The notes beneath the pieces were generated by a model. It did no database searches. It was given only the letters and a program-made list of their open reading frames with translations, and was not told the DNA's origin. Source: a virus (Duplodnaviria; Caudoviricetes). Taken from it: DNA of 64,000 nucleotides. Shown here piece by piece: positions 3,158-55,364 of the stretch; the stretch's first letter is position 1, and every line of letters begins with the position of its first letter. A program made the translations under genes and the position numbers. The stretch covers positions 64,001 through 128,000 of IMG/VR virus record IMGVR_UViG_3300026546_000001; one strand, 5' to 3'.

Positions 3158-4279
3158 ATGAAAAAACTAACTGATGTAATTTTAGAAAAAAAATATATTG
3201 AAAATACTGATATTATATTAGGTTTAGCATTAGTTAATCCATCATTATTAGATTTTGTAATAGATATAAGAAATAAGTATATTGTAAAATGGAATGTGTT
3301 ACAAAGTATGATGAAATATACTGTTATGAAATATGGTGATAAATTAAAGTGGGAAATACCAAATACAATTAATAATATTGAATTAGATATTGAAAAAAAT
3401 TGGAATATGCTTAAAAAAATTAAACAAAAGGCTGATATATTAAGAAATAAATATGAAGAAATTAAAAATGTTACATTTACAAAAAATGGTTTAATTATAA
3501 ATAATGATGATAAAATATTTTTCAATGATACTAAAAAATATACATCTAAAAAAATATTTGACACATTATTTGGAATAAATGATAGTTTAATATATTCGCA
3601 AGAACAAAAATTAGATACATTAGTTAGATATTGGTTAAAATTAGTGTTTATGCATGCATCTCCTGAAACTAGAAATTATATTGAAAATTTTATATTTGAT
3701 AATGTAATAAATCAAGTTACATTTAAAGAATATTTTAAAATAACTGCAAATGAAGATTATAAATATTTAGGTGTTAGAATTAAAAGTTTAGATAAAAATT
3801 TTAAAAAATTACATCAGTTATTAGCAGTATTATATAAAAATCCAGCATATTGGATAGATTATAAAGGGTTTAGAGAAAAATGGCAATATATTAAAAATAC
3901 AATATTAAATAAACAAATTATATTACCAATTTTAAATGAACAAGTTGATAATAAAAAATTAAAAAATAATGTATTACATTTTTTAGCTGATCACTTTAAT
4001 ATTAAAGATGATTCGTATACTGATATAAATACATTACAACAATTACCAAGCAAAAATCAATTTTTAAATACTAAAGTTAAATTAGTAATATCATATTGGA
4101 ATAATGAACAATTTGATTTTGTTTATATTATTAAATGCTTAACATTAGATGATAAAGAATTAGGATCTATAGAAATAGAAATCGGATGGCCATCTGGCAC
4201 ACCCGAATATCGTTTATCGGCAAAAGCTAAATTACATAAATTAAATGTAAAAAATATTATAGAGAATATATCCACTTAG
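3158..4279 (+). CDS. hypothetical protein
   Basis: 373-aa ORF, N-terminus MKKLTDVILE. Confidence 0.7.
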   Translation: MKKLTDVILEKKYIENTDIILGLALVNPSLLDFVIDIRNKYIVKWNVLQSMMKYTVMKYGDKLKWEIPNTINNIELDIEKNWNMLKKIKQKADILRNKYEEIKNVTFTKNGLIINNDDKIFFNDTKKYTSKKIFDTLFGINDSLIYSQEQKLDTLVRYWLKLVFMHASPETRNYIENFIFDNVINQVTFKEYFKITANEDYKYLGVRIKSLDKNFKKLHQLLAVLYKNPAYWIDYKGFREKWQYIKNTILNKQIILPILNEQVDNKKLKNNVLHFLADHFNIKDDSYTDINTLQQLPSKNQFLNTKVKLVISYWNNEQFDFVYIIKCLTLDDKELGSIEIEIGWPSGTPEYRLSAKAKLHKLNVKNIIENIST

Positions 4280-6104
4280 AATTACCTGCATTATAACATC
4301 TATAATATCCTAATTCTAACATTATATCATGTTCAGATTTGTTTTTATCGTATCCTAATTGTATTAATCTATGTTTTGTCCAATTGTATCTATGTTCACG
4401 AATATTATTTATTACATAATAATAGCCTACTTTAGTATATTTTTCAAATTTCATACCAAGTTTTGAATATACTTCACCATCACCCCATTCTAAATTTGCA
4501 TATGATATAACATATGTTATATCATATAAATTAATTATATGCTTAAATAATTTTGAAATTCCTCCTATAACATTATAATTTATTTTACTACAAAAACGTA
4601 ATAATTCATAATTTTTATTTAATTTATAACCTAATGATTTTCTAGTTTTTCCAATGCCCATAGCTGAAACTAATTCTCCATTATAAAATAATCCATATTT
4701 ATATTGAGATGGTATATATCCTTGTAAATGATTATTTTCTAAAAATATTTTATATTCTTTATTAGTTAATTTTTTTATATTACATTTACGTGCGTATATT
4801 TTATATTCAATTTTATTTAAAATATTTTTTAATCTAGATTTAACTATATCTTGTTTGTTTTTCCAATCATCTTCCCATATTTGAATTAATTTTATTTCTT
4901 TATCTTTACATTTTAAATATTTATTTTTATGATAATTTATATCTCCTTTTTGTAATTCACTATGCCAATATATTCCATTAACTTCAATTGCAATATTATA
5001 ATCAGGTAATACAATATCTAATTCCAATGGATTTATTATATTTCTATCATTTTGTATAATATTAGTTATATTAATAGATTTTAAAAAATTTATTACTTCA
5101 TTTTCAAATGACGACTGAGAATATCTTGGATTGCATATTAAACATGGATCTAAATTACCTAAAGTGTAACGTTGATAATAAAAATAAAATGATAATTCTG
5201 ATATATTATTACATTTATTACATTTGTATATAATTGTTCTATTTGTGAAATTTACATCTATTACATTTTTATTTTCACTTAATATTTTATTTTTATAATT
5301 TGTTTGATTTGTTTGCTTAACTTTTTCATGAAATTCTTTTAATGATGTAACTTCCTCAACACCATAACGATTTAAATTTGTTTGTCGACGTTTTTCATGA
5401 ATTATGTTTGATGATAATGATTCTTCAACACCATATTTTTCTAAATTTGTTTGTTTTCTTTTTTCTCTTATACAATCAGCAGATAGTACTTCTTCAACAC
5501 CATATTTTTTCAAATTTGTTTGTCGACGTTTTTCAATATTTTGATTAATTATTTTTTTAACAGATTTAGATATTTTTTTCTTAATTTCATCATTTTGAGT
5601 TGGAATTTCAACACCATATCGTTCTAAATTAGTTTGTTTTCTTTTTTCTTTAATTTCATTAGAATCCATTGGCGTTTCAACACCATATTTATTTTTTAAT
5701 GTTTGTTTTCTTTTTTCTTTAATATCTGTTCTTTGAAATGTATATTCTACACCATATTTTTTTAAATTGTTTTCTTTTTTAAGATTTTTAATTAATTTAG
5801 AACTATTAGCACATTTTTTACTACAAAATAATTTATATCCTTTTACTTTATTAACAAATTTAACATTGTTATTACAATTTTCATTTTTACATTTAGGTAT
5901 TGAATTAATATCATTTAATGCATGATACATTTTTTGTTTAAATGGTAAATTATTTAAATTGTATTTTTTACAATAATTAATAATATAATTATATTCATCA
6001 ATAAAATGATCTTTAAGATATTTTTCATTTGCATATTTAGCAGCAGATTTACCTTTTACATTTTTCAAAAATAATAAATTATTATTAAATGAATTCAATT
6101 CCAT
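4257..6104 (-). CDS. Hef-like putative homing endonuclease: Zn finger, 6 x 23-aa repeats, Zn ribbon, PD-(D/E)XK-like nuclease, GNAT/Mom-like C-terminus
   Basis: CKNENC..FCSKKC; YGVE repeats; CNKC..CLICNP; ELDI..IAIEVNGIYWHSE..IQIWEDDW; YELLRF..ISYAN. Confidence 0.75.
   Translation of the reverse strand: MELNSFNNNLLFLKNVKGKSAAKYANEKYLKDHFIDEYNYIINYCKKYNLNNLPFKQKMYHALNDINSIPKCKNENCNNNVKFVNKVKGYKLFCSKKCANSSKLIKNLKKENNLKKYGVEYTFQRTDIKEKRKQTLKNKYGVETPMDSNEIKEKRKQTNLERYGVEIPTQNDEIKKKISKSVKKIINQNIEKRRQTNLKKYGVEEVLSADCIREKRKQTNLEKYGVEESLSSNIIHEKRRQTNLNRYGVEEVTSLKEFHEKVKQTNQTNYKNKILSENKNVIDVNFTNRTIIYKCNKCNNISELSFYFYYQRYTLGNLDPCLICNPRYSQSSFENEVINFLKSINITNIIQNDRNIINPLELDIVLPDYNIAIEVNGIYWHSELQKGDINYHKNKYLKCKDKEIKLIQIWEDDWKNKQDIVKSRLKNILNKIEYKIYARKCNIKKLTNKEYKIFLENNHLQGYIPSQYKYGLFYNGELVSAMGIGKTRKSLGYKLNKNYELLRFCSKINYNVIGGISKLFKHIINLYDITYVISYANLEWGDGEVYSKLGMKFEKYTKVGYYYVINNIREHRYNWTKHRLIQLGYDKNKSEHDIMLELGYYRCYNAGNSKWIYSL
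5310..5790 (-). repeat. coding 69-bp (23-aa) repeats, 6 copies with one spacer insertion; boundaries approximate
   Basis: KQTNL(E/K)(R/K)YGVE units. Confidence 0.8.
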
Positions 6105-42441: not shown

Positions 42442-42714
42442 TCAAATTTCTTCTAATTCTAATTCTTTTTCTTTTACTAATTTTAATACTTCTTCTTTAG
42501 TTACTGCAAATCTTGATAACGCAAACCAACTCCATGGAAATAAATCACTATTATCAATTTCTTCCAATTGACAACCATAAATTCCTTGTTGTGTCATATA
42601 TGCTATTTTAATAATAGTATATTCTTGGCCTTTTTTAATCCATCTTGAAGTTGGAATTTCATTAGGTCTATTTTTGTCATCAATACATATTACTTTCATA
42701 ATATTAAATTCCAT
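42442..42714 (-). CDS. hypothetical protein
   Basis: MKVICID.. ORF overlapping the endonuclease stop; true start probably 42699. Confidence 0.6.
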   Translation of the reverse strand: MEFNIMKVICIDDKNRPNEIPTSRWIKKGQEYTIIKIAYMTQQGIYGCQLEEIDNSDLFPWSWFALSRFAVTKEEVLKLVKEKELELEEI

Positions 42715-44828
42715 TTTAAATTACCTGAATTATATATTCTATAATATCCACGTTCTAACATTATTTCGTGTTCTGTTTTGTTTTTATCAAAACCTTCTTT
42801 TATAAGTTGATCTTTTCTATATTTGAACCTATTTTCACGTATTTCATTTACAACATAAAAATAACCTGGATCAGTTATTTTTTCTAATTTAAAATCTAAC
42901 TTTTCATATAAATTACTATAACCCCAATCTAAATCTTGATACGTAATAATTTTAGCTGGTTTATAATTATAAACAAAATATTTGAATAGTTTATTTAAAC
43001 CACCAACTACATGATATTTTTCTACAAAACGATATAATTCATATTCATGTTCTTTAGATTTTTGATTCATTGACTTTCTTAAATTACCAAATCCAATAAC
43101 AGAAACTAATTCATCATTATAAAATAAACCTAATTTAATTTTAGTTACAATTGAACCTTGTAAATGATATGTATTTAAAAATTCCTTGTATTCTTTAAAG
43201 TTTAGTTCTTTAATTTTACATTTTCTAGCATATAAAACTTTTTCTTTATTAAATATTATTTTAAGTCTGTGTTTAATAATATTTTGTTTTAAATTCCAGT
43301 CATCTTCCCATATTTGTATTAATCGAACTCCTTTTTCATATGCTAAATTCAATTTATTTTGATGATAAAATTTATCCTTGAATAATTCACTATGCCAATA
43401 TATTCCATTCACTTCAATTGCTATATTATATCTTGGAATATAAATGTCTAGTTCTAAAGGTGAAATTATACTTCTATCATTTTTAATATATTTAATATTT
43501 AGTTCATCTAAAAATTCACAAATTTTATTATGAAAACTAGAATACGAATTTATTGGATTACAATTAGTACATAATTCAATATTAAATTTGTTTCGTTGAT
43601 AAGCAAAATAAGAATTCAAAGTGTATTTTTTATTACATTTATTACATTTAAAAGTTATTTCATGATTATCGTAATCTAAATTAACAATATTATATTTTTT
43701 AAAACGACTTAATTGTTTGTTTTCCCATTCAATTTTTTGTTTTTCTTTATATTCATTTGATTGATTATAATGTTCAATACCATAACGTTCTAAATTAGTT
43801 TGTCTAATTTTATTTTGTATTTCTTTAGATTGTAATGGATACTCAACGCCATATCTATCTAAATTAGTTCGCTTTATTTTATCTTGTATTTCTTTAGATT
43901 GATATACATTTTCAACTCCATAACGTTCTAAATTAGTTTGTTTAATTTTATCTTGAAATTCTTTAAGTTGTAACGGATGTTCAACTCCATAACGTTCTAA
44001 ATTAGTTTGTTTAATTTTCTTTTTTATTAATTCTGATTGATATACATTTTCAACACCATAACGTTCTAAATTAGTTTGCTTGTTTTTTTCTTGTATTTCT
44101 TTAGATTGTAATGGATGTTCAACTTCATAACGTTCTAAATTAGTTTGTCTAATTTTATCTTTTATATTTGGATTTAATAATGGATGTGAATAACCAGTAT
44201 TTTTTTTGTACGTGTTGAATGTTTTTTGGTGTATATCTTTATTTTTCCATGGATGTTCAGTTCCATGTCTTTCTAAACTTGTCTTTTTATATGTTTTTTT
44301 ATATTGATCTATATTTTTTTTAAATGATTTAACACGTTTTTCTAATAAAATTTTACTTTTTGCTGGATTATCAACACCATAATGTTTTATCAATGTTTGT
44401 TTACGTTTTTCCTTAATTTTTTCTTTTTCATCATTTGGTTTATTATTAATTGTTTGGCGCTGTTTATTTTTTATTTCATCTAATTTTTGTGGTATTTCAA
44501 CACCATATCGTTTTAAACTAGTTTGTTTACGTTTTTCCTTAGTATATTTTGAACTACTTTGACATTTATTTGAACAAAATGATAAATATCCTAATGTTCT
44601 ATTTTGAAATTTGACAATATTATTACAATTTTCATTTTTACATATTGGAACACTTGTGACATTATTAATCGTATGCCATACTTTTTGACTAAATTTTAAA
44701 TCTTGTAAATTATAAGTGTTACAAAATTCTATAATACTTTGATATATTTCAGGATAATGTTTTTTTAAATATTTTTCTTTTGATAACATACCAGATGGAT
44801 CTGGTTTATTAAATATTGAATAATCCAT
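42696..44828 (-). CDS. Hef-like putative homing endonuclease with 10 x 23-aa repeats and GNAT/Mom-like C-terminus
   Basis: Same domain order as 4257..6104. Confidence 0.75.
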   Translation of the reverse strand: MDYSIFNKPDPSGMLSKEKYLKKHYPEIYQSIIEFCNTYNLQDLKFSQKVWHTINNVTSVPICKNENCNNIVKFQNRTLGYLSFCSNKCQSSSKYTKEKRKQTSLKRYGVEIPQKLDEIKNKQRQTINNKPNDEKEKIKEKRKQTLIKHYGVDNPAKSKILLEKRVKSFKKNIDQYKKTYKKTSLERHGTEHPWKNKDIHQKTFNTYKKNTGYSHPLLNPNIKDKIRQTNLERYEVEHPLQSKEIQEKNKQTNLERYGVENVYQSELIKKKIKQTNLERYGVEHPLQLKEFQDKIKQTNLERYGVENVYQSKEIQDKIKRTNLDRYGVEYPLQSKEIQNKIRQTNLERYGIEHYNQSNEYKEKQKIEWENKQLSRFKKYNIVNLDYDNHEITFKCNKCNKKYTLNSYFAYQRNKFNIELCTNCNPINSYSSFHNKICEFLDELNIKYIKNDRSIISPLELDIYIPRYNIAIEVNGIYWHSELFKDKFYHQNKLNLAYEKGVRLIQIWEDDWNLKQNIIKHRLKIIFNKEKVLYARKCKIKELNFKEYKEFLNTYHLQGSIVTKIKLGLFYNDELVSVIGFGNLRKSMNQKSKEHEYELYRFVEKYHVVGGLNKLFKYFVYNYKPAKIITYQDLDWGYSNLYEKLDFKLEKITDPGYFYVVNEIRENRFKYRKDQLIKEGFDKNKTEHEIMLERGYYRIYNSGNLKWNLIL
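43750..44530 (-). repeat. coding 69-bp repeats; boundaries approximate
   Basis: CGTTCTAAATTAGTTTG at 43786, 43924, 43993, 44062 and 44131 (69-bp period). Confidence 0.9.
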
Positions 44829-44861
44829 AAAATATGTTTTAAAGTATTTGTTAAATTTAAC

Positions 44862-44899
44862 AAAAAAAGTCGAAAAGTTTTAACTTTTCGACTTTTTTT
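44862..44899. terminator. bidirectional intrinsic terminator after the tail sheath gene
   Basis: AAAAAAAGTCGAAAAGTT/AACTTTTCGACTTTTTTT. Confidence 0.8.
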
Positions 44900-44916
44900 A
44901 ACATTTTATTTTTCTT

Positions 44917-47900
44917 TTATTGTTGTAATGTAAAACCACCACTTTGAATTGTACCTGTTCTAAGAATTGTTATGTTATTCACTATTATTCCCATTCCTTT
45001 AATAGGTTCAACATACGTGTCAATAACACCAATTCCAGCATCAATTACATCAGGCGTATTATTTGTTTCATCCATTACGTTTAAATAATCATATAAACCA
45101 TCTTGTGCAACAAATCTAGCACAAATCGCATCTGCTCGTTGTTTTATTTCTGATCTAACTTCAGCAGTGTTAAATCTCCATTGGTATGTTAATAACATGT
45201 TATACATTTCATTTTCAAGTTCAATTAATACTTCACGAACATGAATATTAGATAATGCTGATTTAGGAACTATTGACGCTGTATTATTAGTTTCAATATT
45301 ATAACCTCTATTAAGTTTAAATGTGATTGGATTAGCTCCCATTTCATTTAATTCTGAAATATCATCTCCATCAATATCAACTTCAGTCGCACCAAATCCA
45401 GTTACTAAACCATTTGTAACACCTGCTGCAATAGTCCATGGATAAACGTCTCCTCTACGAGAATTATGTTTATTCATAAATGTATTTGCAACAAACATTG
45501 CTGGTGGAACATTTAATGTTCTTCCATTATCATAAATACTTACATATGGGAAGAAATAAGCAACATTACTTTGTCCTTGACCTTGTCCAAATGTATATCT
45601 AAATGCTGGATTAGATTGTGGATTTCCACCAAGTTTAATGTATTCATAATTTAATGTTCCATCATTATTAATAAATGTTGGATTTGTTGAATGTTTAAAC
45701 GCTTTAGCAGATGGCATATTTAATAATCCAAGTGCATTTAATCTAGCACCGCATAAATCAACCATTTGTTGTTTACTATTATTAGTTAAGCCCAATCCCC
45801 ATGAATCAATTAAATATCTCCATGAAATTTGATTTCTATTAGTTAATCCTTTAAATAATGGTGTACCAGGCGCAAATAAATTTAATATTTCATTTTGACG
45901 TTTTTCAGTTCCATCAGGCATACTATCAAGTCTCATTGTAAATCCATCAAATACTAATGCTTGTAATGTATTTACATAATTATCTACAGAATTTCTACGA
46001 ACAACTTGAATGTCAATATTTGTACTAGGATCTGCATCAAAATATGCTACAGCTGCATCAGTGCTTATTACGGCTAAACTAGGATCAGCTTCCCATATTT
46101 GTCTACTATTAATTCGTGTTAATTTTTTAGGTACATATCCAATTGGTAAATCATTAGGAATTGCTGCTTCTAGAAAATCGCCAACCACTATTTCTCCATA
46201 TCTATTTGCATCAATTAAAAATTGATTTTGTTCAAGAACTGCTTCTATTTCAACAGTTTGTGCAAAATTAGATCTATCAGAAAATACCCATATTGTTTTA
46301 TTATTTTCAGGATCAATTCTTTGTTCACCTGCTGTTTCTAAATCAGGACTATTTACAAAATCAACATATAATTCACTTTGAATACTATACATTTTTAAGT
46401 ATACATATTGATCAGGATTACCATCAAATATATGTACTAATTTATTATATTGAACATATTCATTTACTGCTTCATTAACAATGAATGTTGCTTTATAATC
46501 ATACGTTACACCTAATTTAGTATATTGTCCCATTTCATACGCTACACTTAATAGTGTATATGTTCCTGTATTATTATCAACATCTTGAACATAAATTTTA
46601 TCTCCACCTTGAGCGTCTAATTCAGGAATATTTGATAATGGTCCACTATATTCTCCATCAGGTGCACCATCTCTTGTATACATTACAATAATTGATTGTC
46701 CTAAATCATCTTTAGTAAATTCTATTGCATTAATACCTGAACCATTTGGTATAATATTTTGTAAAAAATAATCACCAGATTTAATTATTCCATCATAATA
46801 ATGTTGATAAAATGTTGATGATTTACTTACAATTCCATAATCAGGAACATTTTCAACAGCTCTCATTCCTATTTCACCAAGTGTAAATGCATCATTTGCA
46901 TAATATAATTCAAAATTGTCTGCAATAACATTTGTAGTAGGAACAGTGATTTTTATATCTTTATTTAGATTATTATCTGTTGTATAACTTACATCAATTA
47001 TTTCAGCTAATGTTCCATCTAATAATTTTACAACTGTTTTTCCAACTGCTACATTAGATCGTATATCATTAAACATTTTTAATGCTCTAAATTTAGTGTA
47101 ATTATTATCAGCATCAGATACGCGTGTATTATTAAATGTTACTAAAACTTCATAACTAGATATGTAATCAACTAATATATCAACTTCTTCAGATCCAGCA
47201 GTACCATGATCTCCACTAGATACAATTTTCCATGTTAAATTATCTAAAAATTCAATATCATTAACATCTGTTACACCTAAGTATAATTCATCTGTTGCAG
47301 TTGATTGTGTTCTTTGTGTTCCAACTTTAACAATTGCTATTGGATATAATACATCAGAAATTGATAATGTAGGTACAACTTCCCATTCAGTCCAATCACT
47401 AACTTCTACACCTGTCATTACGCCAAGTTGTCCTTTTGAATCAATATAAATAGTATCCTTTCTTATTCTATTTTCAGATACATCAGGTATTCCAATTTCT
47501 TGGCCAGACGCAATGTGTAGATCTGATCCATTTAAAACTATTCTTGCTTCATTAGTTAATGTTATTAAACTAACTTTATTTTGTGCTGGATCACTTGATG
47601 GTAAAACATCAAATATTGGACTTACAATCCAAGTTGTTTCAAAAAATCCATTATGTTGAACTTCATTATTATATTCTATTGTTGTATTAAATGCTAATGT
47701 ATTACCAGGACTAACTAATGCTTTTTGTTCAAACGAAACAGTTTCGGTTATAACTTCATTATATGACATAAAATTAATATGATCAGTTTCATTTCCAACT
47801 AATGTATGTCCAATTAAATCAATTAAACCGTTTGGATTATCAGTTTCTAATGCATCTACATCATATGTTACAAATAATCCTGTATAATCTGTATCATTAT

Positions 47901-48738
47901 TAATTACAGTTTCAACATAATAATCAGTGCCATTTTGATCTCTAAAATATGGTATAAGAGATACAGTATAATTTTTCAATGTGTTTACAGATGGATCATT
48001 GACAAAATTATTAAGTTGATCTTTAATTAAACCTTTAGAATTAAAATATCTACTCCATTTAGGATCTACTGATAATGATTTATAATCATTCCAATATCCA
48101 CTTACCACAACAACATCAATCATATAATCACTAATAAGATCATCAAAATACATCCACGATGGAACTTTATCTCTTCCACCATACCAGTCTTCTGCTTTAA
48201 TATCAAAACCAGATATATCAGATTTATAAATAAAAACACTTATTGGTTTATCTGACATATTTGTAAAACTAAGAATCTTAGTTTTTTCTGTTGGTTGTGT
48301 TTTATCAACATTAAATTGAAATGCTTCTGTGTCTCTTAACCAAAATTCATTTTTATCAAAAAAACTTGAATAAGGATCAGAAAAAATTGATGAATTTTCA
48401 ACAGAAGAAGATAATGAAACCGATTGCCATTGTAATAAATCAAGTTCATCATCAGTTTTTAATAAATTTAATGCCCATATAGGTGATTGATTTATAACTT
48501 GTTGTATTGTTCTATGAAAATAATTACCCTTTTTTTCCAATGTTCTATCTATATCACCAAATATAGATACAAATTCTTGATATGAATTTACAAGTACAGG
48601 TCTGTTTATAGGTCCTTTCTTACTAAATCCAATAACCAAGTTTATAAGAGTGTCTTGTACTGGAGTTATTTGTGTTGTTTTGTTTATTTCTTGAATATAA
48701 ATTCCAGGACGTCTAAATTTAGATATTTGAATTGCCAT
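44917..48738 (-). CDS. contractile tail sheath protein (T4 gp18-like), enlarged
   Basis: RPGIYIQEI..IGFSKKGPIN N-terminus; ALSNIHVRE, FNT, DETNNTPDVID..VEP C-terminus. Confidence 0.9.
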   Translation of the reverse strand: MAIQISKFRRPGIYIQEINKTTQITPVQDTLINLVIGFSKKGPINRPVLVNSYQEFVSIFGDIDRTLEKKGNYFHRTIQQVINQSPIWALNLLKTDDELDLLQWQSVSLSSSVENSSIFSDPYSSFFDKNEFWLRDTEAFQFNVDKTQPTEKTKILSFTNMSDKPISVFIYKSDISGFDIKAEDWYGGRDKVPSWMYFDDLISDYMIDVVVVSGYWNDYKSLSVDPKWSRYFNSKGLIKDQLNNFVNDPSVNTLKNYTVSLIPYFRDQNGTDYYVETVINNDTDYTGLFVTYDVDALETDNPNGLIDLIGHTLVGNETDHINFMSYNEVITETVSFEQKALVSPGNTLAFNTTIEYNNEVQHNGFFETTWIVSPIFDVLPSSDPAQNKVSLITLTNEARIVLNGSDLHIASGQEIGIPDVSENRIRKDTIYIDSKGQLGVMTGVEVSDWTEWEVVPTLSISDVLYPIAIVKVGTQRTQSTATDELYLGVTDVNDIEFLDNLTWKIVSSGDHGTAGSEEVDILVDYISSYEVLVTFNNTRVSDADNNYTKFRALKMFNDIRSNVAVGKTVVKLLDGTLAEIIDVSYTTDNNLNKDIKITVPTTNVIADNFELYYANDAFTLGEIGMRAVENVPDYGIVSKSSTFYQHYYDGIIKSGDYFLQNIIPNGSGINAIEFTKDDLGQSIIVMYTRDGAPDGEYSGPLSNIPELDAQGGDKIYVQDVDNNTGTYTLLSVAYEMGQYTKLGVTYDYKATFIVNEAVNEYVQYNKLVHIFDGNPDQYVYLKMYSIQSELYVDFVNSPDLETAGEQRIDPENNKTIWVFSDRSNFAQTVEIEAVLEQNQFLIDANRYGEIVVGDFLEAAIPNDLPIGYVPKKLTRINSRQIWEADPSLAVISTDAAVAYFDADPSTNIDIQVVRRNSVDNYVNTLQALVFDGFTMRLDSMPDGTEKRQNEILNLFAPGTPLFKGLTNRNQISWRYLIDSWGLGLTNNSKQQMVDLCGARLNALGLLNMPSAKAFKHSTNPTFINNDGTLNYEYIKLGGNPQSNPAFRYTFGQGQGQSNVAYFFPYVSIYDNGRTLNVPPAMFVANTFMNKHNSRRGDVYPWTIAAGVTNGLVTGFGATEVDIDGDDISELNEMGANPITFKLNRGYNIETNNTASIVPKSALSNIHVREVLIELENEMYNMLLTYQWRFNTAEVRSEIKQRADAICARFVAQDGLYDYLNVMDETNNTPDVIDAGIGVIDTYVEPIKGMGIIVNNITILRTGTIQSGGFTLQQ

Positions 48739-48804
48739 CTGTAATTAATTAATTTTATTATATATATTTATTTTTTTAAAGATTTTTGTACATATTTATA
48801 TAGT

Positions 48805-51033
48805 TTATATTATTTTATGAATTTTACTAAAATATGTATTAAATAAATCTTTTCCGCTTTCTGTTTTTGTTAAAATTTTATATATTGAATGCTTTAATAA
48901 TATATTATGAATTGTAGCATTATATGTATAAGTTGTTTTAACTGTATTAGATAAATAAGCATCTGTTAATTTTTCATACATAAATGCATTAACTTCTTCA
49001 GGTCTATTTATATTTTCTGAATAACGCGTTCCAATTAATTTAGTCAATCTATTTTTACAATATTCTAATATATTTTTAACTAAATTTATATATTTTAATT
49101 CATTTTCATTTGAAATCTCATCACTAAACGCTATATCAGTTATAAATTGTACTTCCTTATCCCAATTATTATCTTTTATTAATTTTAATCCATAATCTTT
49201 TCGATACAAATAAATTAAATCTGCAGTAGCTTTAAACATAATTGGTAAAGATACAGTATGTTCTATATTTAAATATCGTATATATATTAAATTGTTTTTA
49301 TTAGAATTATAATATACATTTAATAATTCAGTTTTAAAATTATTTACTGATGATATTGCAACATTTGCATCATATGAACCTGGTATTTCTTTTATAAATA
49401 AACCATCACCATATGACTGTATTATGTAATTTTCAAGTTCTTTATTATTTAATAAATTTTTATTTTTAAGATCTAATATTATAAAAATTAAACGTTTTGG
49501 TAATAACATATTTACCATATTTCTACTTTTAATTACATCATATTTTGGAGATGTGAAAAATTCTTTTGCTATATTTAATATTTCAGGCGTCGTATGTTCT
49601 TGTATTAATAAAATTGGTAACATTAATAAAAAATTATCAATTGATTTAGAACTAAATTCATAAATTTCATTAACTAATTCATTATTTCTTAATATAACAG
49701 TGTAATTACCTCGTACTATTTTATTATAAACATTTAATATATTTTTAATGAAATTATTAACAATTATATCATTTTTATTTTCAATTGCTTTAACATATGA
49801 TGTTTTTTCATTTATATTATTAATATTTAAAAAAATTAATATTTTATTTAATGTTATATTATTAACATCAAATGCTGAAATTTTTAAATTAAAAATACTA
49901 CGAACTAAAATATCTATACTAGATATTTCAAAATTATGTTTTACTAATGTTGCAACGTTTTCATTTGCATCATTAAATGCGTCAATTTCAACTTTTTCAA
50001 TACTAGAATCTAATATTTTATTTAATGATATATTATTACTTTGTGGATATGTTGTAACGCCAAATCTATAAATTGGATCAGTTATTAAATTATTAGGACT
50101 AACGTAAGGTTTTAATGTTGAAGTGTAATGTGGATTAGTCCAATTTATTGGTACTATAGCATCGTATGGAGATATTAATTTATCTTTAGGTATTTCTTTT
50201 TCGTTAGGATTTTCTTCTCTTAATTGTTTAATTTTGTTTAACACATCTTCTTTAGATAATCCATCAAAATTAAATTCAGTATGTTTAAAAACTGGATCAA
50301 TTCTTTTTGATGCTCGTCGTTTTATTTCATTGAAAATATCTTTTTTAATAAAAATGTATTGTATATTATCATCATCACCTAAATGTTTTTCAAAATAATT
50401 AAAAGATTTTATACACCAAATTGGTGAAATCCAATGTAATATTGCATTCATGTCAGGTACCCATAGATCTTTATCTTTATCATATTTTGCAGCTATAATT
50501 ATATTATATCCAAGAGTATTTAATATTTTTCTTAATTTTTGTAATAATTTTTTTTTCTCTTCAATTGATATATTATAAAACATGTCATTTTTTTGTTTTG
50601 AAAATGTTACATATTCAATAATATTATCATTTAAAATATCAATACCAGGTATTTCATTAACATATGGTAATGATGTAATAGTTAATAATGATTTTAAATA
50701 ATCTATAGGTTTACGATTAATATTTTTATCAATATTAACTATTATATTTTGTCTTTTTAATATTGATAAATAATTTAATATTGGTAATACATAATCATTA
50801 ATATATTCTTCAACATTTTGAAATTTGTCTATTTCATCATAATAATGCTTAATAAAATAATATGCATAATTTACATTTTTACCTAATGAATTTATTATTT
50901 TTTGATAATCAGAATTTGGATCAGTTCTATTAAAATTGCTAGGTAATTTACCTTGTTTTTTTAAATTTTCAATATATGTTTTAGCTGCACTTATATTTTC
51001 ATTTACAGATTTTAAAAACATTTCATTTTTCAC
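48805..51033 (-). CDS. large hypothetical protein
   Basis: 742-aa ORF, late-type promoter motif, N-terminal FLKSVNE. Confidence 0.7.
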   Translation of the reverse strand: MKNEMFLKSVNENISAAKTYIENLKKQGKLPSNFNRTDPNSDYQKIINSLGKNVNYAYYFIKHYYDEIDKFQNVEEYINDYVLPILNYLSILKRQNIIVNIDKNINRKPIDYLKSLLTITSLPYVNEIPGIDILNDNIIEYVTFSKQKNDMFYNISIEEKKKLLQKLRKILNTLGYNIIIAAKYDKDKDLWVPDMNAILHWISPIWCIKSFNYFEKHLGDDDNIQYIFIKKDIFNEIKRRASKRIDPVFKHTEFNFDGLSKEDVLNKIKQLREENPNEKEIPKDKLISPYDAIVPINWTNPHYTSTLKPYVSPNNLITDPIYRFGVTTYPQSNNISLNKILDSSIEKVEIDAFNDANENVATLVKHNFEISSIDILVRSIFNLKISAFDVNNITLNKILIFLNINNINEKTSYVKAIENKNDIIVNNFIKNILNVYNKIVRGNYTVILRNNELVNEIYEFSSKSIDNFLLMLPILLIQEHTTPEILNIAKEFFTSPKYDVIKSRNMVNMLLPKRLIFIILDLKNKNLLNNKELENYIIQSYGDGLFIKEIPGSYDANVAISSVNNFKTELLNVYYNSNKNNLIYIRYLNIEHTVSLPIMFKATADLIYLYRKDYGLKLIKDNNWDKEVQFITDIAFSDEISNENELKYINLVKNILEYCKNRLTKLIGTRYSENINRPEEVNAFMYEKLTDAYLSNTVKTTYTYNATIHNILLKHSIYKILTKTESGKDLFNTYFSKIHKII

Positions 51034-51086
51034 TATTAGTAATAAATTAAATTTTAATTATATATTAAACTATTTTAATATTAATA

Positions 51087-53264
51087 TTATATCATTCCAC
51101 CACGGCTTAATTCATGCATTTTAATATTTGCATGTGTGTATAATTCTTCAGTTAGTTCCATTTTCTTTTTAGCTGACCATAAAATATTATAATCTATACC
51201 AGTTGGATATTCAACATCATCTAATCGTTTTTCAATAAATTTAATATAATTATCATCAATTTCTGTTTCTATGTAATAATCTATTAAATCTTTAAAACTT
51301 TGGTTATTATACAATGATGCAATTGCAACTAAAGACATAACACAATCATCGTGTCCTGTTTCAGATTCAAAATGATCTTGACTACTTCTATGATTTTCAA
51401 CTCTTACAAATGTAGTCATTTCTCTAATTGTTGTTTCTTCATGTGGAAAAATATAATTATTGTTAATTCTATGTTGATATTCTTTAACTAACATTCCTTT
51501 ATTATTTCTAATTTTTAACCCAATTTTTCCAAATAATGCATCAGCTCTATGTTTATATCTTGCAAATATATGTGAACTATAATTATTATTTCCTTGATAT
51601 AATCCTGGCATGTGTGCTAATAATTCAGCTCCATATGTATTATATTCTAATGCAATTTTTATTTTATTTTCATCTAAAATATGAAATGCTAATACATATA
51701 TCATTTCAGTTAATCTTTTAACACTTGTATTATTACTATGAAATATTCCAACTTGTTCTAATTTAAAAAAATCATATACACTTTCTATTCTAGCATCTTT
51801 TAATTCTTCTTTTGATTTAGGTAAAATTCTAAATAAATTTATTACAGAATAATCTTGTCCTAATCCTTCTGCAATATCAATACCAATTGCATACCAATAT
51901 TTTTTACGATCTTCCCAATTAAATATATCTTCTCGATCTTTTATCCACTTAAAATCTCTATAATCTATGTGATTTAAATTTTCGTATTCTGGAATTTCAT
52001 GCCAAACAAATTCTGCTTCATTATCAGATATTTCAGCTAATTTATCTTCAGAAAATGTTAAATTACTTGCAGCATAAAATTGTAATCCATATTCTTGATT
52101 AAACGCTTCTTCAGATCCAATATCCTTAATTGTTTCTTCTTTCCATGATGTAACTTGCGCAATATTATTAATACTTATTGACATATTTTCTACACGTTCA
52201 CCAAACGCTTCATCAAAAATATCAGATTTAATAATTAATTGTCTTATATCATCATTTTTTAATTCTGAACTGTTTTTAATATGTATAACCCACCTAAAAT
52301 CTTCGTTATTATATTTCATTTTAATATCATCATCTGCAATATTAAAATGTTGTTTAATATAATTAAATACTAATTCTTTAGTTAATCCATATTCATCTAA
52401 TTTATTTTGATTTAATCTAATATATGTAACATTTCTACCTGGAACTTGCCACCAATATACTCTAAGTGCTTTAAAATTATTTTTTCTAGGATCACCGTCT
52501 GGTCTTTCAGCTGCATCAAGTATTTTCCAAAATAAGTTTCTTCCATTTGGTGTAGATGTAATCACAATTTTAGAATTTTCAATACTTGATACTGTTGGAT
52601 ATGCAGATCTATAAAAACTTTCTATTATAGTTCTTGGAATATGTGCGAATTCGTCAAAATATAAAAAATCTATCGTAAAACCAATTGCCGGTTCTTTTGT
52701 TCTAGCAGATGTCATAATTCTACATCCTGTATCTTTAAATACAATACTACGTTGTGCCCAACTGCTAACTCCAGGTTTTAAAAAGAAAGGTAAATGTTTA
52801 TAAATACTTTTTATTTTGTCAAGTATTTCAGTTGTTGTAGATAATTTATTTGCCATTATCATAACATTTTTATCTACATTAAATATTACATAATGTAAAA
52901 TTGATACAGCAACTGAAACAGTTTTACCAATTTGACGCGATGCCATTAAAATACTAAATCTATTATTTGATATAAGATCAATAATTTTTCGTTGATATTT
53001 TCTTCCTTTATATGTAAAATTTCCTATTGATCCATCTGAAGTTTTAACTTTACAATATTTTTGTGCAAAATAATGCACATTCATTTTACATTTAACATAT
53101 TCAACTTGTTCTTCTTTTGTCCATCCAAATGCTAAACCAGCTCTTCTAACATCAGGTTCACCAGATAAAAATGGATTTTCATGTCGTTTTGGTATATAAC
53201 CTTCGTTTATTTTATGTTTAAATTCTTCTACATATTTTGTGGTGAATATCATGTTATTTGACAT
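51087..53264 (-). CDS. terL: terminase large subunit (T4 gp17-like)
   Basis: SRQIGKT, YFDEFAH, TSTPNG, GIDIAEG..DYS, HDDCVM. Confidence 0.92.
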   Translation of the reverse strand: MSNNMIFTTKYVEEFKHKINEGYIPKRHENPFLSGEPDVRRAGLAFGWTKEEQVEYVKCKMNVHYFAQKYCKVKTSDGSIGNFTYKGRKYQRKIIDLISNNRFSILMASRQIGKTVSVAVSILHYVIFNVDKNVMIMANKLSTTTEILDKIKSIYKHLPFFLKPGVSSWAQRSIVFKDTGCRIMTSARTKEPAIGFTIDFLYFDEFAHIPRTIIESFYRSAYPTVSSIENSKIVITSTPNGRNLFWKILDAAERPDGDPRKNNFKALRVYWWQVPGRNVTYIRLNQNKLDEYGLTKELVFNYIKQHFNIADDDIKMKYNNEDFRWVIHIKNSSELKNDDIRQLIIKSDIFDEAFGERVENMSISINNIAQVTSWKEETIKDIGSEEAFNQEYGLQFYAASNLTFSEDKLAEISDNEAEFVWHEIPEYENLNHIDYRDFKWIKDREDIFNWEDRKKYWYAIGIDIAEGLGQDYSVINLFRILPKSKEELKDARIESVYDFFKLEQVGIFHSNNTSVKRLTEMIYVLAFHILDENKIKIALEYNTYGAELLAHMPGLYQGNNNYSSHIFARYKHRADALFGKIGLKIRNNKGMLVKEYQHRINNNYIFPHEETTIREMTTFVRVENHRSSQDHFESETGHDDCVMSLVAIASLYNNQSFKDLIDYYIETEIDDNYIKFIEKRLDDVEYPTGIDYNILWSAKKKMELTEELYTHANIKMHELSRGGMI

Positions 53265-53266
53265 AA

Positions 53267-53312
53267 AAAAGACATATAATTTAATTATATATCAATTAAT
53301 TATATGTCTTTT
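53267..53312 (-). promoter_or_regulatory. 15-bp hairpin abutting the terL start, with a late-type promoter motif in its loop
   Basis: AAAAGACATATAATT/AATTATATGTCTTTT arms; loop reads GATATATAATT on the - strand. Confidence 0.6.
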
Positions 53313-53348
53313 AATAAAATGTGTAAAAAAACAATAAAATAGGTGAAT

Positions 53349-55364
53349 TTATTGTTTTTTATATATCCATTTTAAATTTCCTGAATTATAAATTTTATAG
53401 TAACCTCTTTCGATCATTATTTCGTGTTCCGTTTTATTTTTATTAAAACCTTCTTTTATAAGTTGATCTTTTCTATATTTGAACCTATTTTCACGTATTT
53501 CATCTTTAAAATATGAATATCCTGGATCAGTTATTTTTTCTAATTCAAAATTTAGTTTTTCATATAAGTTTGAATATCCCCAATCTAAATCTTGGTAAGT
53601 AATAATTTTAGTTGGATTGTATTGTTTAATAAAATGTTTAAATAATTTTGCAAGTCCACCAACGATATGATATTTTTCCGCAAAACGATAAAGTTCAAAT
53701 TCATTTTCTATACTATGTTGATTCATAGATTTTCTTAAACTTCCAAATCCAATAACAGACATTAATTCGTTGTTATAAAATAATCCTAATTTAACTTTTG
53801 TTGCAATATAACCTTGAAGATGGTATTTATTTAAAAATTCTTTGTATTCTTTAGAATTTAGTTCTTTAATTTTACATTTTCTTGCATATAATATATTTTC
53901 TTTATTGAGTATTATTTTAAGTCTATGTTTAATTATGTCCTGTTTAAATTTCCAATCATCTTCCCATATTTGAATTAAACGAACTCCTTTTTCATAAGTT
54001 GAATTTAGTTTATTTTGATGATAGAATTTATCTTTATATAATTCACTATGCCAGTAAATTCCGTTTGCTTCAATTGCTATATTATAATCTGGGATATGAA
54101 TGTCTAATTCTTTAGGACTAATTATATTTCTATCATTTTTAATGTATTTAATATTTAATTCATCCAAAAATTCACATATTTCATTATGAAAATTTGATGT
54201 ATAATTTACAAATGGATTACAATATATACAAACATCTCTATTACTTTTATTTCTATAATACGCAAGCCGCCAATTTATTGTATATGTTTTATTACATTTA
54301 CTACATTTTAATGTAATAGTTTTTTCATCATAGTTAAACGAAATAATATTATAATTATTAAATCGTTTTTGTTGTGTTTGTGTCCAATTTTTAATTATTT
54401 TTTCTTTATATTCATTTGATTGATTGTAATATTCAACACCATAACGTTTTAAATTAGTTTGTTTTATTTTTTCTTTTACTTCTTTAGATTGATAAACGTT
54501 TTCAACACCATATCGTTCTAAATTAGTTTGTTTTGTTTTTTCTTGTACTTCTTTTGATTGTGTTGGATATTCAGTTCCGTATTTAGTTAAATTAGTTTGT
54601 TTTGTTTTTTCTTTAAATTCTCCACATTGTACTGGATATTTGACACCGTATCGTTCTAAATTAGTTTGTTTTGTTTTATATTGTATTTCTTTAGATTGTA
54701 CTGGATATTCAACACCATATCGTTCTAAATTAGTTTGTTTTATTTTCTCCTTTATTTTTTCTGATTGATAAACATTTTCAACACCATATCGTTCTAAATT
54801 AGTTTGTTTAACTTTTTCCTGTATATTTTTATTTTGTAATGGTGCTGTTACATTATATCGTTTTAAATTAGTTTCTTTTATTTTCTTTTTTATTGATGGA
54901 TCTTGTGCTGGATTTGAATAGCCAGTTTTTTCTTTATATGTATCAAATGATTTTTGGTGTATATCTTTGTTTTTCCATGGGTGTTCAGTTCCATATCGTT
55001 TTAAACATGTTTTTTTATACGTTTCTTTATATTGATCTATATTTTTTTTAAATGATTTTACACGTTTTTCTATTGATTTTTTTGAAGATCTTGCGCATTT
55101 AGTAGAACAATATTGTCTATATCCTTTATTTCTATTAATGAAAATGGAATCATTATTACAATTTTCATTTTCACATGTTGGAATATTTGGTATATTATTG
55201 ATAGCATGCCAAATTTTTTGTGAAAATTTTAAATTTTGTAAATTATGTTTATTCGCAAAATTTATAATATTATTATATATTTCTGGATAATTTTTTTTAA
55301 TATAAAATTCTTTTGAATATAATCCAGATTTATCTTCTTTGTAAAAAATGCTATAATCAATCAC
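53349..55364 (-). CDS. Hef-like putative homing endonuclease with 9 x 23-aa repeats and GNAT/Mom-like C-terminus
   Basis: Close paralog of 42696..44828. Confidence 0.75.
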   Translation of the reverse strand: MIDYSIFYKEDKSGLYSKEFYIKKNYPEIYNNIINFANKHNLQNLKFSQKIWHAINNIPNIPTCENENCNNDSIFINRNKGYRQYCSTKCARSSKKSIEKRVKSFKKNIDQYKETYKKTCLKRYGTEHPWKNKDIHQKSFDTYKEKTGYSNPAQDPSIKKKIKETNLKRYNVTAPLQNKNIQEKVKQTNLERYGVENVYQSEKIKEKIKQTNLERYGVEYPVQSKEIQYKTKQTNLERYGVKYPVQCGEFKEKTKQTNLTKYGTEYPTQSKEVQEKTKQTNLERYGVENVYQSKEVKEKIKQTNLKRYGVEYYNQSNEYKEKIIKNWTQTQQKRFNNYNIISFNYDEKTITLKCSKCNKTYTINWRLAYYRNKSNRDVCIYCNPFVNYTSNFHNEICEFLDELNIKYIKNDRNIISPKELDIHIPDYNIAIEANGIYWHSELYKDKFYHQNKLNSTYEKGVRLIQIWEDDWKFKQDIIKHRLKIILNKENILYARKCKIKELNSKEYKEFLNKYHLQGYIATKVKLGLFYNNELMSVIGFGSLRKSMNQHSIENEFELYRFAEKYHIVGGLAKLFKHFIKQYNPTKIITYQDLDWGYSNLYEKLNFELEKITDPGYSYFKDEIRENRFKYRKDQLIKEGFNKNKTEHEIMIERGYYKIYNSGNLKWIYKKQ
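54410..55010 (-). repeat. coding 69-bp repeats; boundaries approximate
   Basis: CGTT(C/T)TAAATTAGTTT at 54445, 54514, 54652, 54721, 54790 and 54859. Confidence 0.9.

Follow-up and report, generated by a model that had tools for sequence, protein, structure and literature searches.

The stretch of DNA analysed here (the window) comprises 64,000 nucleotides, positions 64001–128000 of a 158,295-bp viral contig from the IMG/VR database (IMGVR_UViG_3300026546_000001). Three genes in the window, named c1, c2 and c3, encode proteins with a common domain order, in which an N-terminal domain is followed by a zinc (Zn) finger, an array of basic 23-residue repeats, a Zn ribbon, a Vsr-like nuclease domain and a C-terminal domain (C-domain). 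A search of the whole contig recovered two more full-length paralogs, c4 and c5, arranged head to tail just past the end of the window, and a sixth was located on an ENA contig from the same phage that overlaps this one, giving at least six paralogs in one genome (Table 1). We consider it likely that these paralogs encode homing endonucleases of the Hef / EDxHD (Vsr-like) family, as free-standing genes in an uncultured T4-like huge phage. CheckV estimated the completeness of the 158,295-bp contig at 34%, and the phage is therefore probably huge.

A motif scan identified in all five copies on the contig a C-x4-C...C-x3-C Zn finger, the 23-residue repeats and a CxxC...CxxC Zn ribbon, together with the nuclease motifs ELDI, AIE.NG.YWHSE and IQIWEDDW and a C-domain of ∼180 residues. 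None of the five open reading frames (ORFs) was interrupted and none had lost a nuclease motif or either Zn motif; c5 differed from the other copies in its N-terminal domain. A first-pass annotation, made from the window sequence without database searches, had described three paralogs sharing this order; the ORFs and the motif scan agree with that description, although the two additional copies on the contig and the sixth on the overlapping contig had been missed.

Family identity and nuclease domain

The annotation of these genes as members of a known and very common family is secure. The PHROG 3339 family (‘homing endonuclease’) matched the copies from end to end, C-domain included, at E values of 1e-130 to 1e-143 (4e-143 for c2). 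Relatives were found by tblastn in 438 phage records, among them genes annotated as hef or homing endonuclease in the Klebsiella phages RaK2 and K64-1 and in Campylobacter phages (75–93% of the protein covered); in the same search each Lak megaphage contained 13 places matching the family, and identity to any deposited phage copy was at most 44%. The half of the protein composed of the nuclease and the C-domain retrieved >2,000 proteins, and the sole result of an exact-protein look-up was a contig of this phage that overlaps the present one. The deposited sequence nearest to c2 (43.7% identity) lies in LR756500.1, a 462-kb uncultured phage with 16 places matching the family, a larger expansion than in the phage studied here.

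The nuclease domain was matched by phmmer to the catalytic domain of I-Bth0305I (PDB 3r3p; E 1.1e-5). An AlphaFold2 (AF2) model of the c2 nuclease region, with a predicted local distance difference test score (pLDDT) of 95, aligned with the same structure in Foldseek at a template modelling (TM) score of 0.79–0.80 by target and 26% identity, and Vsr (1cw0) was also among the Foldseek matches. The equivalents of I-Bth0305I residues D196, N208 and H213 were intact in all five copies (ELD, (V/T/A)NG and YWH), and that of D222 had no confident placement. The paper on I-Bth0305I, the EDxHD prototype, had already assigned Hef-type endonucleases to the ‘EDxHD’ family. I-Bth0305I resembles the copies in nuclease fold, in active-site residues and in having its DNA-binding region N-terminal to the nuclease; however, it is intron-encoded, carries two NUMOD/helix-turn-helix motifs instead of the DUF7487 repeats described below, and lacks a Mom-like domain. 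A homodimer prediction for the module of Zn ribbon, nuclease and C-domain scored 0.00, which speaks neither for nor against dimerisation.

Beyond the full-length PHROG match, the copies resemble Hef and Hef-like enzymes (U5 Hef; F-LimIII/VII/VIII/X of LIMEstone1; the hef products of RaK2, K64-1 and Campylobacter phages) in being encoded by free-standing genes that adjoin essential or structural genes. They differ from these in sequence, with identities no higher than the 44% given above, in arrays of up to 9–10 repeats, and in the presence of at least six paralogs per genome.

Composition and predicted fold of the repeat array

The repeats belong to the Pfam family DUF7487 (PF24308), which was matched at E values of 1e-26 to 1e-59 (1.5e-55 for c2) and with scores of 188.9, 200.9 and 92 bits against a gathering cutoff of 27, far more than chance would give. 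When the array alone was searched against Pfam at E≤10, DUF7487 was the only family returned, and neither NUMOD3 nor STPR was found. A repeat hidden Markov model (HMM) with strict 23-residue spacing counted 6, 9, 8, 5 and 8 clean units in c1, c2, c3, c4 and c5, respectively, with one degenerate unit besides in each of c2 and c3; the array lengths of 6, 10 and 9 previously reported for the three window copies were thereby reproduced. All arrays are basic, with isoelectric points of 9.6–10.1 and net charges of +12 to +27.

DUF7487 is a family without an assigned function or structure; for the array of c2 a confident model was obtained. The AF2 model of residues 222–372, which cover six contiguous repeats, was elongated, with a pLDDT of 92 and a predicted TM score of 0.52. 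In the modelled unit a 15-residue helix begins at position 17, ends at position 8 of the following unit and leads into a G-V-E-x loop and a three-residue turn at positions 13–15; the triplet following the YGVE motif (positions 12–14) is thus predicted to lie where the loop ends and in the turn that comes before the helix. The array as predicted, in a model built without DNA, is a zig-zag of single helices, one per unit. Foldseek returned no match for this fold at E≤0.001, and the exhaustive VIA-wide alignment reached a maximum Z of 3.3, mostly with coiled coils at a root-mean-square deviation (rmsd) >30 Å, with no TALE, PUF or NUMOD structure listed. A phmmer search of the array against PDB retrieved only engineered OspA repeats (E 0.06), which were dismissed as noise.

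The STPR domain of Bombyx FMBP-1 (5d23) provides an analogy for a possible binding mode of the array, and nothing more. STPR likewise has basic helical repeats with a strict length of 23 residues, and its single helices zig-zag along the major groove, advance 4 bp with each repeat and read mostly DNA shape (PMC4856987). Its unit, however, is a 21-residue helix with a 2-residue linker, as opposed to the 15-residue helix and 8-residue loop and turn predicted here; the fold match was weak (Z 3.1, rmsd 6.0 Å, 54 residues), and no sequence relationship was detected (Pfam, E≤10).

Is there a code in the repeats?

The first-pass annotation had suggested that the array might function as a code like that of transcription activator-like effectors (TAL effectors, TALEs), with a target set by repeat order. 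Worked out in full, such a code would have each 23-residue repeat read a fixed number of bases by means of the three residues after YGVE, the order of repeats would spell the target, and the C-domain would modify that target and so protect the carrier. As in TAL effectors and TALENs, tandem repeats are here fused to a nuclease (naturally, in this case) and repeat number varies. TALE units, however, are 33–35 residues long, contain two helices and are near-identical except at two residues, whereas the units here have 23 residues and one helix, a mean DNA identity of 65% and ∼ten variable positions. The triplet words themselves read in the arrays as they had been listed, and in this phage's own 36 repeats positions 12–14 were among the most variable.

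A larger set of 526 repeats from 163 proteins was assembled, of which 36 were from this phage and 490 from 158 other proteins. Among the 490 repeats, positions 2, 16, 17, 18, 21 and 23 varied as much as positions 12–14. Entropy exceeded 2.6 bits at positions 2, 12–14, 16–18, 21 and 23, the variation being spread over ∼ten positions, and only K1, T3, L5, K/R7, Y8, G9, I19 and K22 qualified as scaffold. The picture of a conserved scaffold with variation confined to the residues after YGVE was therefore overstated. The triplet yielded 229 distinct words in the 490 repeats, the commonest accounting for 4.5%, and showed no greater discreteness than triplets taken arbitrarily from other positions. 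Of the differences in 245 nearest-neighbour repeat pairs it held 17%, compared with 13% if these were distributed uniformly, and the positions that changed most were 17, 21, 18 and 2.

Within this phage, the DNA of whole units was 85% identical when two repeats shared a word and 65% identical in other pairs, and same-word matches were collinear between c2 and c3. The recurrence of words thus reflects paralogy and duplication, and it is paralogy that has produced the apparent ‘code words’. Positions 13 and 14 covaried with positions 16, 19, 23 and 4 (z scores of 9.6 to 19), and the partners of the triplet include conserved hydrophobic positions of the repeat; as read from the alignment, this covariation marks structural subtypes of the repeat and not freely varying specificity residues. 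The ‘HYN/YYN’ word corresponds to a terminal capping repeat that is conserved across the family. The hallmarks by which a TALE-type code could be recognised in the repeat sequences were all absent; in particular, there was no sign of a small hypervariable patch on an invariant scaffold that would spell the target, and a code of this type is not supported.

The Mom-like C-terminal domain

The C-domain of c2 had the crystal structure of phage Mu Mom (8bv8) as its top Foldseek match (E 1.2e-6), followed by ordinary GNATs. When aligned with 8bv8 using VIA-align, it gave a Z of 13.0 over 154 residues; the Z was tied with those of other GNATs, and this alignment was the longest. In hhalign, a profile of 51 C-domains matched a profile of 34 Mom proteins with a probability of 91.6% (E 8e-7, 126 columns), a comparison that replaced one against the single Mu Mom sequence, for which the match was weak (33%). 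A profile from the alignment of the nuclease and Mom-like domains, searched against PDB sequences, reached only 3r3p and not Mom, so that homology is established by profile-profile and fold comparison. On these grounds the modelled C-domain, a GNAT fold that includes the extension typical of Mom, is a Mom-type GNAT and a true relative of phage Mu Mom, in agreement with the first-pass annotation. The window proteins themselves had no match to Pfam Mom (PF25680) at E≤10, and relatives 54% identical passed this model with 37.5 bits (P0010) and 46.8 bits (P0005) at a gathering cutoff of 27.1. P0005, an ENA metagenome protein of 1179 residues, looks like a tandem double unit, with two Vsr/MTES nuclease matches and two Mom stretches; it also contains a Ros/MucR Zn finger, and its C-terminal part passes Acetyltransf_1 and Acetyltransf_7, which are ordinary GNAT models. 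Searched on its own, the C-domain retrieved 15,523 cluster representatives at E≤0.001, mostly as the C-terminal part of proteins of 450–650 residues, with few stand-alone forms.

Mu Mom moves glycine from Gly-tRNA onto the N6 of adenine, and its R111A, S124A and R151A mutants are inactive (PMC13219725). The equivalents of H58, E108, R111 and Y159 (Mu Mom numbering) were invariant in the alignment of Hef C-domains. At S124, Ser is present in ∼75% of the wider Hef family, and this phage has Asn in c2, Ala in c3 and c4 and Ser in c1 and c5. D149 is Asp in ∼76% of the wider family and in the copies of this phage other than c1, which has Asn. The R151 equivalent is mostly an Arg one position earlier in the wider family; in this phage Arg occurs at neither position in any of the five copies (‘DLDW’ / ‘NLEW’), and the R151 position itself aligns to Asp. 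Mu Mom Y59 is also replaced in these copies, and the domain differs from Mu Mom, further, in being fused behind a nuclease.

Since S124 and R151 are not conserved in these copies, a self-protective modification is doubtful. Among c2–c5 the Mom-like domain had a dN/dS of ∼0.2, indicating purifying selection, from which we infer that the domain has a function; judged by its residues, this is more likely to be DNA binding, base handling or assembly than a Mom-type modification of adenine. The fusion of Mom with a nuclease, and a cut/protect reading of it, have already been published by Iyer et al. 2021 (PMC7824862). For the copies described here, the idea of a single chain that cuts and modifies, which the first-pass annotation had also put forward, is weakened by the loss of residues essential in Mu Mom.

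Divergence of the two halves

The two halves of these proteins have diverged to different extents. Among c2–c5, the nuclease and Mom-like half was 67–85% identical and the N-terminal half 38–67%; dN/dS was 0.1–0.4 in the former (0.1–0.4 also for the nuclease domain) and 0.4–0.8 in the latter, these values being rough on account of AT-rich DNA, dS of 0.3–1.2 and ambiguous alignment of the repeats. Between c2 and c3, the nuclease and Mom-like domains were 82–85% identical, as against 67% for the N-terminal half, and their arrays differed by whole repeats, which fits an array that alters by gain and loss of whole repeats. Relatives with a C-terminal half more than 50% identical carried either DUF7487 arrays or arrays of DUF723/DUF4379 Zn ribbons.

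The faster divergence of the N-terminal half, the whole-repeat differences, the different N-terminal domain of c5 and the Zn-ribbon alternatives together point to the array as the likely target-setting module; in terms of sequence evolution it is the fast-diverging, and probably the target-setting, half of the protein. A variable module that sets the target is usual for phage homing endonucleases. The proposal that the repeats are shuffleable specificity modules thus survives in part: the array is variable and whole repeats appear to be gained and lost, but the triplet code does not stand in view of the 229 words, the paralogy and the covariation.

Genomic context

The window copies occupy intergenic slots next to genes for a DnaB-like helicase, the tail sheath and the large terminase (TerL), and the sixth copy lies between the prohead protease gene and another gene, next to gp23, on the overlapping contig. 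The placement of Hef-like free-standing endonucleases near essential genes, noted previously for the helicase, sheath and terminase, thus extends to gp23 and the prohead protease. Hef-like genes of LIMEstone1 likewise adjoin structural genes (PMC3296691), and phage U5 Hef is described, in a secondary source (PMC2988022), as cutting nrdB near its own locus. Two terminator-like hairpins with T-runs were located beside c2 and c3 (Table 1). The stops of the upstream genes are overlapped by c1 (by 20 nt) and by c3 (by 8 nt). A short ORF that matched no family begins 19 nt ahead of the c2 stop and overlaps the end of the Mom-like coding region, and a long ORF between the terminase and tail sheath genes had no PHROG match at E≤1e-5.

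Table 1. Positions of the paralogs, their domains and adjacent features (window coordinates unless a contig is named; residues refer to the encoded protein).
Feature	Position	Strand	Remarks
c1	4257-6104	-	ORF, 615 aa; same architecture as c2
c1 array	5319-5777	-	residues 110-262
c1 nuclease	4800-5111	-	
c1 Mom-like domain	4260-4799	-	
c2 (protein P0001)	42696-44828	-	ORF, 710 aa; Hef-type homing endonuclease gene
c2 N-terminal Zn finger	44562-44642	-	residues 63-89, C-x4-C...C-x3-C; kept in all five paralogs
c2 repeat array	43737-44528	-	residues 101-364; 9 clean DUF7487 units and 1 degenerate; last six contiguous
c2 Zn ribbon	43560-43646	-	residues 395-423, CxxC...CxxC; beta-hairpins at model residues 6-21
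c2 Vsr-like / EDxHD nuclease domain	43236-43538	-	residues 431-531; ELD, VNG, YWH intact
c2 Mom-like GNAT domain	42699-43235	-	residues 532-710; Foldseek, VIA, hhalign
c3	53349-55364	-	ORF, 671 aa, GTG start; same architecture as c2
c3 array	54396-55016	-	residues 117-323
c3 nuclease	53892-54194	-	
c3 Mom-like domain	53352-53891	-	
c4	contig 153514-155223	+	paralog, 570 aa; search of whole contig
c5	contig 155229-157067	+	paralog, 613 aa; search of whole contig
Sixth paralog	L048:17882-19486		534 aa; overlapping ENA contig of same phage
Terminator-like hairpin and T-run	44860-44905	-	between tail sheath stop and c2 start; GTCGAAAAGT...ACTTTTCGAC then T7
Terminator-like hairpin and T-run	53268-53315	-	between c3 stop and terL start; ends right at terL ATG
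Short ORF	42442-42714	-	90 aa
Long ORF	48805-51033	-	742 aa

Proposed mechanism and alternative explanations

As homing endonucleases, the proteins would be held on a long stretch of DNA by the N-terminal Zn finger and the basic DUF7487 array, which would probably also determine the site bound. The Zn ribbon and Vsr-like nuclease would then cut nearby, as the intact catalytic motifs and the relatives I-Bth0305I and U5 Hef suggest, and repair from the carrier genome would spread the gene together with its flanks. The array would evolve fast, through substitutions along the helix and gain or loss of whole repeats, behind which the nuclease and Mom-like half would stay conserved. Some observations weigh against this reading. 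The selection estimates are approximate, as stated above. No close relative lacking the homing endonuclease genes (HEGs) was found, the TerL relatives in IMG/VR and JGI metagenomes being at most 44% identical, and it is between such close relatives that presence/absence polymorphism, the hallmark of homing, would show. Furthermore, with a dN/dS of ∼0.2 and R111, H58 and Y159 kept, the Mom-like domain may possess an altered catalytic activity.

Jumbo-phage fusions of Mom with a restriction endonuclease (REase) have been predicted to act in restriction and protection (Iyer, Anantharaman, Krishnan, Burroughs, Aravind 2021; PMC7824862), and they share with the genes here the fusion itself, the kind of genome and the several copies per phage. 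By extension, each protein could be a one-chain weapon resembling a restriction-modification system, its Mom domain ‘momylating’ the adenines of the phage and its REase-fold nuclease attacking host DNA or that of a superinfecting phage. The homology to Mom and the purifying selection on the domain agree with such a role, as does the retention of the S124, D149 and neighbouring-Arg equivalents in 65–76% of the wider family. We nonetheless regard it as unlikely for this phage. Its copies have the appearance of homing genes, and the catalytic competence of their Mom domain is doubtful: three of the five carry Asn or Ala at S124 and none of the five has the Arg, and both changes kill Mu Mom. Six copies whose DNA-binding arms diverge, every one of them with a conserved essential gene as neighbour, present the pattern of selfish homing genes and not that of a protective modifier acting genome-wide. 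Hef, the member that has been characterised, also acts as a homing endonuclease. That the copies are domesticated or decaying, neither moving nor cutting and persisting as DNA-binding regulators or neutral passengers, seems very improbable. Homing endonuclease genes commonly degenerate after fixation, a course that would be compatible with the failure to see HEG-less relatives, and I-TevI also acts as a repressor (PMC10448857); yet all five frames here are intact with their nuclease and Zn motifs, and the nuclease domain retains the low dN/dS reported above. A TALE-like code has an equally poor prospect. In its favour, the array exists, is basic and differs in length between copies, the triplet is among its more variable parts in this phage, whole repeats have been gained or lost between paralogs with 82–85% identical catalytic halves, and the STPR example demonstrates that 23-residue helical repeats can track the major groove in regular steps. 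These points are outweighed by the spread of variation beyond the triplet, the profusion of words and their recurrence by common descent, the covariation of positions that sit in a short turn before the helix, the family-wide terminal cap, and a predicted fold that is unlike TALE or any solved repeat protein in the Foldseek and VIA-wide searches.

A different form of modular recognition, based on analogy with STPR, is improbable. In this reading the DUF7487 array could be a modular scaffold of a kind not described before, whose helices lie in the major groove and each read ∼3–4 bp through positions 17, 18, 21, 2 and 6 instead of the post-YGVE triplet. The order of repeats would then set the homing site, and an adenine of that site would be modified by the Mom-like domain in those members where Ser and Arg are kept, so as to immunise the carrier.

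Significance

For this window, the analysis provides mainly a clean annotation together with a caution: the ‘code words’ arise from paralogy, and catalysis by this phage's Mom-like domains looks compromised. The genes belong to a very large family. Should the arm read DNA in a regular register, it would represent a compact natural DNA-targeting module already joined to a nuclease, and should the tail be active in some members, these would be the first homing endonucleases to mark DNA chemically.

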